This document shows positions 34,200-37,996 of a DNA stretch of 37,996 bases, piece by piece. Under the pieces are notes generated by a model. The model saw only the letters and a program-made list of their open reading frames with translations. It was not told the origin of the DNA and made no database searches. Origin of the DNA: an uncultured virus (IMG/VR IMGVR_UViG_3300021960_000038) (taxonomy: Duplodnaviria; Heunggongvirae; Uroviricota; Caudoviricetes). Position 1 is the stretch's first letter. Each line of letters begins with the position of its first letter. Location: IMG/VR virus record IMGVR_UViG_3300021960_000038, one strand, 5' to 3'. A program made the translations under genes and the position numbers.

Positions 34200-36245
34200 C
34201 TATTTTGTAGTTGCTTCCCAGATGCCTTCCCAATCGCTTGGGTTAGATTGTTTCATCTTTTTACATCTTGATACCATTATTTTACTATAATCTTCAAGTG
34301 GTGAAAAGGTGATTTTAGAATATATGTTGATAGATTTATCCCACTCTCCTTTTACATAAGCATCCCAAGCATCTTCTATATCCCTAACAGTATGGTTGTA
34401 CACAGGAATATCAAATACAGTGTAGATGTTAACAGGTTCTTTCTTACCCTTAACAATCAATTTGTCAAGCAGAATCCAAGTTAGATGATCATCATCTATG
34501 CCTTGCTTGGTGTTTTCTGATACAACCAATTCTACACCATAACTTTTTGATTGTCCTTCTAATCTTGCTCCCAAGTTTACAGGATCTCCAAGTACTGAGT
34601 AATCAAATCTTTGATCAGAACCCATGTTTCCTACAACTGCCTCTCCTGTGTTAATCCCTATACCTATGTTGATGGGCAGTAATCCTTCTTCAGTAAGTTC
34701 TTTATTCAAATCTTTCAAATCGTTTAGCATATAAAGTGCAGAGTACACTGCTTTATGTTCTTGGTTCTCTATATCTAAGGGTGCATTCCAAACTGCCATT
34801 ATACAGTCACCCATGTATTTGTCGATCATACCATCTTTCTTTATAATGATATCCGTCATGGGTGTAAGGAATCTATTTATAAGTTTCGTTAATCCTTGTG
34901 GGTCGGTTTTATATTGTTCACTTATGGGAGTAAATCCTCTAATGTCACAGAACAGATAAGTCATTTGTTTGGTCTCACCACCCAACTGTAGCATCTCAGG
35001 ATTCTTTTGTAGTTGTTTAACTAACTTGGGTGATAAATATGTACTGAACTGCTTTGAAATCTGTTGTCTTAATCTAAACTGACGATAGAAGTTATTAAAT
35101 GATGCTTGAGTAAATATAACCCATAACGACAAGAGAGGAAAACTTGCGTCGATCAAAACTTTATAAGAATCATAACTATAAACAGATAAAGCATAACTCC
35201 CGAGAGTTAAAGAAGCAACCAAAGGTATTTGAACAACCAGAGGACTTCGATATACTATCAATACCAACAATAGACCAAGCACCAGACTGGAAATTATTTC
35301 TGCGAGCAGTACTAGCGATGGACGACTAATTACAGTCCCATCTAGCATTGTTTGTAATATGTTTGCTTGAATCTCGTGAGGGAGTTTTGCTCCATATGGA
35401 GTATTCACTTGAGGCACGATGCCTTCTGCGGATACACCCATGATCACTGCTTTGCCTGATAAATCGGGCAGGGTATCTTTACCCAATTCATAACTGTCAA
35501 AGTGATACTTGTAATCTACATACAATCTACCATTTTGATCAGTAACTATTTTATCGTATGGTGGTATTCTAAATGCTTCTATGCCTAACTCATTTACAAA
35601 GACCTGATAGGATTGTTCTCCTGTTAAATTACGCACCATCTCTAAAGCAAACGATGGATAGATCTTATCATTTACATTGATAGAAACTGGAACTTGCCTT
35701 ACTTTACCATCCACATCATTTGGTGCTACTGCTACTCCCACACCAAAAGCAACATCTTCTAGTATGTCTATGTTGGTTACAATTCCTGGATAGTTGTATA
35801 GATAAGGTAAAGCATCACCACCGATAGTACCTGTACCTACATGAGGTGCTTTACTGTCTAAACCTTTGATAGATGGTAGTTGTGAAAGTACGACTCCACC
35901 ATATGGGAGTACTTGAGATAGAAACTCATCATCGGAAGCATTTGATGGATTAGCAAATGTAGTATTAATTCCTAGTACGAACCCACCCTGATTGAATACA
36001 TCTATAATGTAATTACCCAAAATAGATCTATTGATAGGATAACCTGTATTCTGAAGAGTTGTTTCACCAAGTTCTATGAGAACCACCTGATCACTATGTA
36101 CAGGTTCAGTTTTCATAATCCAATCAAACCAATTAAGTCTGAGAGTTTCTACTGGAACAGGATCAGATATTCTTAGAGATGTTAATCCTGCTATAACTAC
36201 TAAGCACATCCACCAAGATGTTAAGAACTTGGCAAATTTACTCAT
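34200..36245 (-). CDS. CHASE2-domain membrane adenylate cyclase (class III)
   Basis: N-terminal TM, extracytoplasmic domain (DVDGKVRQVP, YPSFALE, HEIQANIL), 3 TMs, LFCDIRGFT, DKYMGDCIM, GNMGSDQRFDYSVLGDPVNLGARLE. Confidence 0.93.
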   Translation of the reverse strand: MSKFAKFLTSWWMCLVVIAGLTSLRISDPVPVETLRLNWFDWIMKTEPVHSDQVVLIELGETTLQNTGYPINRSILGNYIIDVFNQGGFVLGINTTFANPSNASDDEFLSQVLPYGGVVLSQLPSIKGLDSKAPHVGTGTIGGDALPYLYNYPGIVTNIDILEDVAFGVGVAVAPNDVDGKVRQVPVSINVNDKIYPSFALEMVRNLTGEQSYQVFVNELGIEAFRIPPYDKIVTDQNGRLYVDYKYHFDSYELGKDTLPDLSGKAVIMGVSAEGIVPQVNTPYGAKLPHEIQANILQTMLDGTVISRPSLVLLAEIISSLVLGLLLVLIVYRSPLVVQIPLVASLTLGSYALSVYSYDSYKVLIDASFPLLSLWVIFTQASFNNFYRQFRLRQQISKQFSTYLSPKLVKQLQKNPEMLQLGGETKQMTYLFCDIRGFTPISEQYKTDPQGLTKLINRFLTPMTDIIIKKDGMIDKYMGDCIMAVWNAPLDIENQEHKAVYSALYMLNDLKDLNKELTEEGLLPINIGIGINTGEAVVGNMGSDQRFDYSVLGDPVNLGARLEGQSKSYGVELVVSENTKQGIDDDHLTWILLDKLIVKGKKEPVNIYTVFDIPVYNHTVRDIEDAWDAYVKGEWDKSINIYSKITFSPLEDYSKIMVSRCKKMKQSNPSDWEGIWEATTK

Positions 36246-36334: not shown

Positions 36335-36448
36335 ATGAAAAGAAATTTTATATTGTATGGTGCCCTCAAAGCATATAAGAAAATCGATAAGGTTTTAAAG
36401 CAACAACGACTCCATAAAGTATGGAATCGAATATTGAAAGAATCTTAG
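36335..36448 (+). CDS. Putative 37-aa basic peptide (only plus-strand gene candidate)
   Basis: G-rich SD (AAAGGGGGG) then MKRNFILYGALKAYKKIDKVLKQQRLHKVWNRILKES; stop overlaps the convergent stop. Confidence 0.5.
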   Translation: MKRNFILYGALKAYKKIDKVLKQQRLHKVWNRILKES

Positions 36449-36951
36449 AACTTGTATTTGAGTTCTACACCATATTGGTCACGAAGGTGGTGATCGTTCC
36501 AGATTACCACTGACCATTGAAATCTATTTATCCATCTTAATGTGCTAGTTCTATCAACAGTATCTAAATTATTCACCATCAAGAATAGTACAGGAAGCAT
36601 AGTTCCTTTGAGTAAATAGATCTTTTCTTCGCTTGGTCTTTTCCCTATTAAGGGATTCATTTCAAATACCTCACATTCATCATACTCCTGACAATTAGTC
36701 ATTTGTACAGTTTGGTATACATCTACAGCATTCGCAAGTAAGTATGAAGTTGCTAATTTTTTTTGTTTTTTAGTCCATTCTTTATTCTCCACATAGTAGT
36801 TATCTAGATAACCATCTTCTATGGGCATTTTGTAAGAAAGAATGACTTGTTCAATATCAGATAGATGATATTGTTCTGAGATAAGTATCTCTTGGGAATA
36901 TAGGATTGATGGGACTAAGGCAAGGCAAAGCATTGCCAGTGCCCTAGTCAT
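36445..36951 (-). CDS. Secreted/membrane hypothetical protein
   Basis: Signal-peptide-like N-terminus; ANAVDVYQT...EMNPLIG motif. Confidence 0.7.
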   Translation of the reverse strand: MTRALAMLCLALVPSILYSQEILISEQYHLSDIEQVILSYKMPIEDGYLDNYYVENKEWTKKQKKLATSYLLANAVDVYQTVQMTNCQEYDECEVFEMNPLIGKRPSEEKIYLLKGTMLPVLFLMVNNLDTVDRTSTLRWINRFQWSVVIWNDHHLRDQYGVELKYKF

Positions 36952-37081
36952 CACAATCCTCTGGATTTTGGGAACAATAAAGTTTAACTGCTCTAATCAT
37001 AAAGAACATTTCACCTTGAGTTAAATCTCCATCACCTTTGCCTGAATTAGACTTTTGTGGTGAGGAGGACTTTACTTTCCC
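36944..37081 (-). other. Predicted programmed -1 frameshift site and 43-aa extension
   Basis: G GGA AAG directly before TAA; downstream CTCCTCACC/GGTGATGGAG stem; -1 frame open to TAG 36944. Confidence 0.7.
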
Positions 37082-37356
37082 TCTTCTTTTTTAGGGTTTT
37101 GTAGTTCGTCAGTTTGTCTATCAACTTCTTCTACTACTGTATCAACAACTCCGCCAACTGCGTCAGATGCTGTTTTGGTTATATCAGAAGCATCTTTTAA
37201 TACTGCTTGTGATACACCACCCACTGTTTTGACTGATGCGTCAACTACGCCAGTCGTTAACATTTTTCCTCCGTCAATCACAGCACCAACTGATGCACAA
37301 GATTGAACGAAAAGAGCAAACATTATTATGCTTAATGTAGTTTTTAACATTTTCAT
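37072..37356 (-). CDS. Small lipoprotein
   Basis: MLKTTLSIIMFALFVQS-C lipobox; Gly/Val/Ala amphipathic repeats. Confidence 0.75.
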   Translation of the reverse strand: MKMLKTTLSIIMFALFVQSCASVGAVIDGGKMLTTGVVDASVKTVGGVSQAVLKDASDITKTASDAVGGVVDTVVEEVDRQTDELQNPKKEEGK

Positions 37357-37393
37357 TTTCCTATAATTCGGGCATATGCCCATTAACATAAAG

Positions 37394-37401
37394 TATTTAT
37401 A
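37394..37401 (-). promoter_or_regulatory. T4-type late promoter TATAAATA
   Basis: Exact consensus, intergenic, upstream of the lipoprotein. Confidence 0.7.
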
Positions 37402-37407
37402 CTTATT

Positions 37408-37995
37408 TTAGTTGCCTTGCGTCACAGAAACAGAGCAACCCCCAACTGTTTGACAATCTTGCGTAAGAGAATAAGTTTGTGCTGTAGTTCCTTGTTGAAG
37501 CATATATAAGTCTGTAGCATACAAACCATTGATTGATACTGTAGCACTATGAGTTGCACTTCCCTTTTGTATCATATCAATATCATTGTTGCTGTTATTA
37601 ATTGTTAATGTGAGTGTTTTGTTTTGGTTGCTTTCTTGTCTTGTGTACACATCGTTGTAATCACCATAGATATAGGTGATGTTTGAATGTTCGTGTCCTG
37701 AGTTATTTGCTCGTTGACTTCCTAAAAACTTATTGTTAGAACCATGAATATCTAATTGTGTAAAATGTCCACCATATTCATAATCATCTATAGCATGTAA
37801 AGAACCATCGGCATCAACTCTGTATCCTTGGTAAAAATCAACATCATTGCTATCACCCTGTATATGAAACTCAAACCTATCACCCCCACAGGATGATCCT
37901 TGATTACATGTTTGTATAATTTTTAAATTATTGTAATCGCCATCTAAATCTCCACCCCAACTTAAACCTGAACCCCATAATGTAGTGAAACCAAC
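37408..37995 (-). CDS. Curlin-like repeat protein, C-terminal part (starts beyond the window)
   Basis: Frame open to the window edge; repeats GDYNNLKIIQ, GDSNDVDFYQ, GSNNKFLGSQ, GDYNDVYTRQ, NSNNDIDMIQ; ends CQTVGGCSVSVTQGN. Confidence 0.7.
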   Translation of the reverse strand, partial: VGFTTLWGSGLSWGGDLDGDYNNLKIIQTCNQGSSCGGDRFEFHIQGDSNDVDFYQGYRVDADGSLHAIDDYEYGGHFTQLDIHGSNNKFLGSQRANNSGHEHSNITYIYGDYNDVYTRQESNQNKTLTLTINNSNNDIDMIQKGSATHSATVSINGLYATDLYMLQQGTTAQTYSLTQDCQTVGGCSVSVTQGN

Positions 37996-37996
37996 A

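Follow-up and report, generated by a model that had tools for sequence, protein, structure and literature searches.

The window analysed here is a stretch of 37,996 nucleotides from an uncultured virus (IMG/VR IMGVR_UViG_3300021960_000038). The phage is T4-like, its family B polymerase being nearest to those of marine cyanomyoviruses (about 50-52%), and other genes of the window encode RecA-like and DnaB-like proteins, hsp20, a redoxin, ribonucleotide reductase and a primase. The public runs containing the stretch are mostly labelled as estuary, marine or freshwater metagenomes. Towards the end of the window, on the minus strand, a small gene for a predicted lipoprotein sits between a curlin-like gene and a gene for a CHASE2 cyclase (Table 1). 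The curlin-like protein clusters with a PF07012 protein, although its own Pfam search gave no match. Downstream, a 10-pair terminator-like hairpin (36407-36429) closes the unit formed by the lipoprotein gene and the next gene, and a TAAATA core (36256) precedes the cyclase, so that this two-gene insert looks like a late transcription unit of its own. A scan for sigma-70 promoters gave fewer sites than shuffled sequence did.

Table 1. Features of the lipoprotein locus and its neighbours (window coordinates)
Feature	Position	Strand	Remarks
End of curlin-repeat-like gene	37408..37996	-	CsgG-curlin-FecR-curlin module, cut by the window end
TATAAATA, which we take to be the T4-type late promoter consensus	37394..37401	-	One of eight TATAAATA in the window, all on the minus strand
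Lipoprotein ORF, short zero-frame product	37072..37356	-	94 aa (92 aa if the start is 37350)
Signal peptide and lipobox-like VQS-C	37297..37356	-	Cys20 (37299-37297), predicted lipidated residue
Mature body, predicted long amphipathic helix, 11/3-type periodicity	37096..37296	-	Hydrophobic moment; AlphaFold2
Slippery heptamer G GGA AAG (Gly-Lys)	37075..37081	-	In phase, directly 5' of the stop
Spacer TAAAGT, including the zero-frame stop TAA	37069..37074	-	Relatives also have a 6-nt spacer
Putative stimulatory stem-loop, C(C)UCCUCACC / GGUGA-U-GGAG, with inner GUCU/AGGC hairpin (37052-37040)	37027..37068	-	RNAfold
-1 frame tail, 43 new residues	36944..37075	-	Predicted long form 137 aa (135 from the second start); homolog dN/dS 0.24
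Tail end, predicted amphipathic helix closed by Y-C-x3-P-x2-C	36953..37018	-	Cys codons 36976-36974 and 36955-36953
Next gene, 168 aa	36445..36951	-	No Pfam or PHROG match
CHASE2-adenylate/guanylate cyclase	34200..36245	-	Homologous to the cyclase of phages Melnitz and HTVC008M

The zero-frame product carries the features of a bacterial-type lipoprotein, namely a basic N-terminus, a hydrophobic stretch and a lipobox whose cysteine is invariant in 61 aligned homologs. The box of the window is atypical in sequence (relatives have AQGC, LPSC, ATSC, ITSC or LASC), and the residue at +2 is Ala or Ser. In E. coli, Asp at this position retains a lipoprotein in the inner membrane; by that rule, the signal peptide, the invariant Cys and the adjoining Ala or Ser suggest a lipoprotein that would not be held there. 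The start given by the initial annotation, 37356, may stand, but 37350 is a possible alternative with better AGGA spacing, and the Atlas record begins at residue 3. Further upstream, one base of the window (37390), just before a far ATG at 37389, is absent in the contigs of all four public runs searched, and may be an extra base or a variant. Across 125 homologs the hydrophobic moment of the body peaks at 98 degrees. AlphaFold2, with body and tail modelled separately, returned an all-helix body of low confidence (pLDDT 55), too poor for a structure search. The 99 protein homologs measure 82-110 aa. Pfam and PHROG hold no family for the lipoprotein at default limits, and relaxing Pfam to E up to 1 brought up only sub-threshold helical families; in the Atlas, the neighbours of the body are unnamed viral clusters, with a DUF6726 lead at 0.88, and there is nothing for the tail.

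The gene ends CCT AAA AAA GAA GAG GGA AAG TAA, with the stop at 37074-37072, and its last codons form the heptamer that we take to be the slippery site of lambda G/GT. Among the 43 minus-strand ORFs of at least 80 aa in the window, the lipoprotein gene is the only one with an X XXY YYZ heptamer at its end. In the RNAfold model, CUCCUCACC (37067-37059) and GGUGA-U-GGAG (37036-37027) form an outer stem that encloses the GUCU/AGGC hairpin, and the spacer is given as 6-7 nt because in an alternative register the stem starts at 37068. With -14.1 kcal/mol and a z of -3.1 for a 50-nt piece and of -1.1 to -2.1 for three longer pieces, the hairpin of the window itself is modest. From the heptamer the -1 frame is open to a TAG at 36946-36944, adding VKSSS...PEDCDD, and its stop overlaps the next gene, which shares the last 8 nt of the tail frame from its ATG at 36951 on. 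These readings bear out the initial annotation, which had described the phased heptamer, a stem about 7 nt downstream around GTCT/AGGC, an open -1 frame of 43 residues (reproduced exactly on translation) and an overlap with the following start. Contigs from four of four public runs (two DNA, two RNA) cross the slip site with no indel among the matches listed, and the early stop is therefore not an assembly slip; together with the homologs, this rules out assembly error as its source. RNA-library contigs do not establish transcription.

Relatives were collected in two ways. Three alignment scans of viral contigs found 272, 231 and 267 relatives, of which the best 80 of each were taken, so that part of the family was sampled. 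Of 207 sequences in all, 204 were parsed and 125 were distinct; one was dropped because it met a contig end (L001), one as unparsed (L182), and one (L003) as a single spurious GC-rich match from a single-protein metagenome scan. Among these 125 loci, a heptamer lies within the last three codons in 55 of the 56 that have a -1 tail bearing [YF]C-x3-P-x2-C, versus 1 of the 69 others. A scan that started from the motif and was blind to the slip site found 72 viral loci, 51 of them distinct, and 47 of these lie behind the stop of this same lipoprotein (43 in the -1 frame and 4 in the +1 frame; the other four are two contig edges and two apparently unrelated sequences). The merged set holds 139 distinct loci, 67 with a -1 tail, 4 with a +1/-2 tail and 68 without a tail, and in it A AAA AAG or G GGA AAG stands at the gene end in 66 of the 67 -1 tailed loci versus 1 of the 68 tail-less ones (L138). 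In -1 tailed homologs a slippery heptamer is thus kept in place of synonymous non-slippery codons, and the -1 frame is not broken by stops, being open from the heptamer on in all 67. The initial annotation had proposed to look for a conserved GGGAAAG; a slip site is indeed kept, but in the family majority it is A AAA AAG (58 of 67; in 31 the stop follows directly and in 27 after one further codon), while G GGA AAG before the stop is seen in 8 and G GAA AAG in 1. In 187 neighbouring ORFs of related loci, such heptamers make up about 1.5% of the corresponding codon pairs (G GGA AAG, 4 of 271 Gly-Lys pairs; A AAA AAG, 3 of 197 Lys-Lys pairs).

The counts of heptamer against tail are not independent, because the loci are kin: on a tree of 99 rows and 67 columns, a weak one, the tail-less state needs just 3 changes, G GGA AAG 4, and the two A AAA AAG classes 6 each, the site classes (two heptamers, two stop distances) being interleaved. 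More telling are losses between sister sequences at the same site. Behind gp23, heptamer and tail are lost together (L004 and L014 versus L006 and L007, with 206 of 240 body bases identical between L004 and L006), and the same occurs behind gp32 (L129 versus L070, L111, L149 and L163). Since 68 of the 139 sampled loci are tail-less, the tail is dispensable in some lineages. The one tail with an imperfect heptamer, G GAA AAG (L078:313-432), has a stem of 5 bp at a distance of 6 nt and an overlapping TAATG; a single-tRNA slip on A AAG and re-initiation are both possible there.

In the -1 frame the tail behaves as coding sequence under purifying selection. Over 26 disjoint homolog pairs its dN/dS is 0.24, below 1 as the initial annotation had expected, versus 1.30 and 1.59 in the other two frames; over the helix and Cys motif it falls to 0.11, and the values of the other frames lie at 1.30-1.79 throughout; substitutions are distributed 137/73/244 over the three codon positions, and both other frames are closed by stops in 71 of 71 tailed loci. 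The frame stays open over 31-74 new residues. At the tail end, the C-x6-C pair noticed at the outset is real as a Cys pair, but the fuller motif is C-x3-P-x2-C, and Cys, Pro and Cys are invariant in 37 aligned tails; a disulfide would presumably join the two cysteines. AlphaFold2 places a helix at tail residues 15-31 (pLDDT 88-95), ending at the Cys motif. It is amphipathic and charged in most homologs, and the tail has no transmembrane segment. Foldseek returned no match with the tail model, and a predicted three-copy tail complex scored 0.06, which amounts to no answer from the model. In four loci (L057, L089, L097, L113) inserts of about 4-16 residues lengthen the helix with a coiled-coil-like Leu/Ile repeat. 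Stop readthrough was rejected, the tail never being in frame 0.

The RNA downstream of the heptamer is organised at a fixed distance. In the three site classes, mean pairing of the 5' arm rises between positions 6 and 7 after the heptamer from 0.17 to 0.66, from 0.15 to 0.84 and from 0.56 to 0.92, whereas in tail-less loci it is flat across the same positions (0.57, 0.51); the rise occurs at position 7 whether the stop occupies positions 1-3 or 4-6, and hairpins of different clades, unrelated in sequence, stand at the same distance of about 6 nt from the heptamer. The mean fold z is -2.8 in the 71 tailed loci (45 at or below -2, 26 above) versus -0.8 in the 68 tail-less ones (16 at or below -2). 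Stem covariation, foreseen as a check by the initial annotation, is seen: in the KKD-type stem (17 loci) 8 of 11 pairs carry two-sided changes, with 79% of cells paired and 21% not, and the KK-type stem (22 loci) is paired throughout (100%), with 1 of 10 pairs two-sided and 6 that never vary, kinship being ignored in both counts. In L002 the outer stem is kept and the inner hairpin is enlarged by an in-frame 24-nt insert. A Shine-Dalgarno-like stimulator on the 5' side was rejected: such a motif (GGAG, GAGG or AGGA within 20 nt upstream) is present in 9 of the 67 tailed loci, compared with 30 of the 68 that lack a tail.

An in-phase X XXY YYZ heptamer, a 3' structure 5-9 nt further on and a selected frame without a conserved start are thus found together, and because of this site, this open and selected frame, this positioned hairpin and the lack of a conserved separate start, we consider it very probable that a programmed -1 frameshift at the last two codons yields two isoforms of the lipoprotein. 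Ribosomes could in principle reach the tail without shifting if it were a separate small gene with its own start, or one served by re-initiation after the lipoprotein stop; in the window, ATG codons stand 10 and 7 codons ahead of the tail motif, the TAATG of L078 would suit such an arrangement, and the 3' part of the L089 tail is predicted as a protein by a gene caller. This reading is nevertheless very improbable: no ATG precedes the motif in 17 of 56 tails, 5 of the 56 have no ATG, GTG or TTG at all, 32 have no start 12 or more codons before the motif, and the GTG behind the stem varies (GTG, GTT, GTA, GAT, TAT). A separate gene would also leave unexplained the heptamer, the 6-nt spacing of the hairpin and the frame open from the heptamer in all 67 loci, and a peptide without a signal sequence would leave its Cys pair in the cytoplasm.

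Access to the tail by transcriptional rather than ribosomal slippage is scarcely credible. A run of 6-7 consecutive A at 58 of 67 sites would permit it, but the window site and 7 others have just 3; the sites retain the G of AAG despite a preference for AAA as Lys codon (2704 to 841), the 3' hairpin is not yet transcribed as the polymerase crosses the run, and the contigs of the RNA runs have no indel at the site, a weak point in that rare variants are lost from contigs. We give next to no weight, finally, to the view that the shift serves mainly to supply the next gene with ribosomes and that the tail peptide is a by-product. Such coupling would fit the overlap of the tail stop with the next ATG in the window and in L002, and a next start within -14 to +8 nt in 14 of the 54 measurable loci; yet the other 40 gaps measure 13 to 513 nt, the next gene differs among loci, and selection on the amino acids is strongest on the helix and Cys motif.

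Under the frameshift reading, most ribosomes on the late transcript would terminate at UAA, and the 94-aa prolipoprotein so made would measure 75 aa once cleaved at Cys20, while a minority, slowed by a hairpin 6-7 nt downstream, would slip one base back on G GGA AAG. Both tRNAs would move in tandem, the Gly tRNA from GGA to GGG and the Lys tRNA from AAG to AAA, and GUA would be read in place of the stop. The 43 residues so added would consist of a variable linker, written mostly by the sequence that encodes the hairpin, and of the amphipathic helix capped by C-x3-P-x2-C and closed by a putative disulfide; both forms would be exported and lipidated. We infer the slippage itself and its rate, export, lipidation at Cys20 and the disulfide from these sequence features, as we infer the existence of the long protein and a fixed ratio of the two forms.

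As a mechanism this would be classical, and it is the type of gene that is unusual for frameshifting. The system resembles others, but also differs from each of them: (i) As in lambda G/GT, where the two products are made at about 30:1 and a partner is bound by the added domain (PMC5009743), a -1 shift near the 3' end of a late gene would yield a short protein together with smaller amounts of one extended at its C-terminus. G_GGA_AAG is given for g-t of halovirus HCTV-5 (PMC5009743). However, the protein here is a predicted exported lipoprotein and not a cytoplasmic chaperone, the tail has only 31-74 residues, and the phages are T4-like, which PMC5009743 names as the exception to G/GT frameshifting; nor is the gene placed between major tail and tape-measure genes, its neighbours being curlin-like, FecR, cyclase, gp23 or gp32 genes, and in Pfam and PHROG the lipoprotein matched no tail-chaperone family. 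(ii) A AAA AAG with a close 3' stem-loop is shared with E. coli dnaX (tau/gamma) and with the IS3 family (PMC6787027, PMC6815119), and in the KK-type clade a three-way junction like that of IS911 is possible (PMC5009743). Unlike in dnaX, there is no upstream Shine-Dalgarno-like stimulator, and the shift lengthens the product instead of shortening it. (iii) Gene 10 of T7 and T3, Lactobacillus phage A2 and Listeria phages A118, A500 and PSA also gain an optional C-terminal module by frameshifting, with relatives that differ in direction (PMC5009743). Those are virion proteins with mostly Ig-like additions, whereas here a short Cys-capped helix would be added to an envelope lipoprotein, and the switch of direction described below occurs on a homologous signal with the same hairpin.

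That switch concerns four loci (L082, which is one contig with L235, L210, L243 and L272) that end GAA AAG AAG TAR and carry the homologous tail in the +1/-2 frame. These are not pseudogenes, a reading rejected on a tail dN/dS of 0.11-0.19 in all six pairs, and their tails have four Cys instead of two. From the last Lys codon to the hairpin arm GCUCA the distance is 5 nt in four of four, against 6 nt in all 29 of the -1 relatives that have this arm; the -1 frame reaches a stop after 8 codons, at one common place in the four loci, and L210 has no start codon able to serve the tail. A scan dedicated to frame-switched members found none beyond the four. We regard it as an even question whether this subgroup uses a -2 slip, in which the Lys tRNAs would re-pair on AAA (well) and on AGA (with a second-position mismatch) and the residue register of the -1 clade would be kept. 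A -2 slip would have parallels in phage Mu and the arteriviruses, and at the HIV U6A site a -2 shift was optimal with a spacer 1-2 nt shorter than that for -1 (PMC3458567). That work, however, used a eukaryotic system in vitro and another heptamer, and a -2 shift here needs the Lys tRNA to accept the AGA mismatch. Against a clean -2 slip stand that mismatch, a conceivable +1 route and the efficient -1 slipping of A AAG AAG on E. coli ribosomes (PMC6787027), which in this subgroup would end after 8 codons. If the switch took place, AAA AAG became AAG AAG and the loss of one spacer base moved the tail into the -2 frame with the unchanged GCUCA/UGAGC hairpin one base closer. The spacer-tension model would then have a natural test in bacteria, possibly with three products: one ending at the stop, an 8-codon -1 dead end (KEVxAHSL) and a -2 long form with a second Cys pair.

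A curli-FecR-cyclase module is known from pelagiphages (PMC9599517, PMC7029224), where the curli genes are of the T8SS type, and the window gene is inserted between the second curlin-like gene and the cyclase of such a module; the close relatives L001 and L002 have CsgG-like, curlin-like, FecR and curlin-like genes upstream. The available main texts of these two papers contain neither 'frameshift' nor 'lipoprotein', and in the modules of the cultured phages HTVC008M and Melnitz the curlin and cyclase genes are direct neighbours, without the insert. With enough flank to judge, a cyclase lies within 3 kb in 41 of 50 tailed versus 0 of 53 tail-less loci; CHASE2 was matched in 10 of 32 records, most being fragments. 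A strict linkage of lipoprotein and cyclase is rejected in view of an 80-kb tailed contig without a CHASE2 match, two tail-less contigs with a more distant cyclase, and the insert-less cultured phages; the link is therefore one of habit or ancestry and not of necessity. The envelope module of the initial annotation is accordingly common but not obligatory, and tailed copies also lie behind the major capsid gene and gp32. Tail-less loci (L046, L079 and L080, for example) are found mostly in small-genome, podovirus-like contexts, several just upstream of CsgF/CsgG. Judged from sequence, the lipoprotein gene moves between phage groups and loci.

By analogy, and tentatively, the likeliest role of the pair is that of a ratio device of the lambda G/GT kind placed in the host envelope: both forms, sharing a lipid anchor and an amphipathic body, would co-assemble late in infection, and the minority long form would supply a sparse docking helix, a handle linking the assembly to a partner. 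Spanins and the Llp/Cor-type lipoproteins are the models for the main rival role that accepts the frameshift, namely lysis or late masking of the host receptor instead of a structural partnership with the curli/cyclase module. We hold this to be unlikely, though to be taken seriously. In its favour, the late-promoter core [ACT]TAAATA precedes 64 of the 66 tailed homologs, compared with 17 of 55 genes that lack the tail and 167 of 1624 background windows, the product is a lipoprotein with terminal cysteines, 9 of 50 tailed loci have no cyclase within 3 kb and the 80-kb contig has no CHASE2 match, and tblastn found no lipoprotein match in HTVC008M or Melnitz, which have the module. But Pfam and PHROG gave no match to a spanin or other family, and, unlike in o-spanin or u-spanin systems, there is no C-terminal transmembrane segment and no adjacent i-spanin, the upstream gene being curlin-like and no overlapping i-spanin-like partner being seen; the association with the cyclase also speaks against this role, although ancestry may explain it. 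A wider reading, that a widespread family of marine-phage lipoproteins tunes a two-isoform envelope assembly and that one lineage switched its signal from -1 to -2, seems to us about as probable as its opposite.

Annotated frameshifts of phages are nearly all in genes for tail chaperones or virion proteins. The available text of PMC5009743 describes cases in tail chaperones and in capsid and tail proteins, and that of PMC10885494 adds lysins, polymerases and others; 'lipoprotein' occurs in neither, and a literature search largely without subscription journals found no published description of this lipoprotein family. A conserved shift on a predicted exported lipoprotein in abundant marine T4-like phages would mean a selected domain that is invisible to gene callers. 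The family also offers a natural series for the mechanics of recoding: the heptamer is of two kinds and the stop stands at either of two positions, hairpins of unrelated sequence keep to one spacing, losses are clean, and one subgroup combines a shorter spacer with a different frame.

Cultured phage records gave no match to the lipoprotein, and HTVC008M gp012 is unrelated. A genome scan by alignment gave 0 of 78 candidates, and of 12 motif matches in genomes only one is a true locus: L288 (JALRDI010000311.1), whose gene, heptamer and tail stand on a contig of 9.6 kb in a MAG labelled as Ilumatobacteraceae. This contig is probably phage DNA binned in error and not evidence for a host. No natural full-length fusion was found among 99 and 64 homologs; the long fused form was absent from 99 matches of 51-165 aa, and from sets of 8000 and 7997 candidates, two weak searches of which the second began at 194 aa. 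P0113, one of the 64 representatives (88 aa), joins the first two thirds of the lipoprotein in frame to an L210-type tail end; it is internally deleted and was taken as a probable assembly chimera or deletion. The single heptamer-bearing locus counted as tail-less, L138 (515-650), is a distant homolog that ends G GGA AAG TAA and has a hairpin; its -1 frame of 43 codons is a different one, but again has two Cys six residues apart, perhaps an independently evolved tail or a diverged one.
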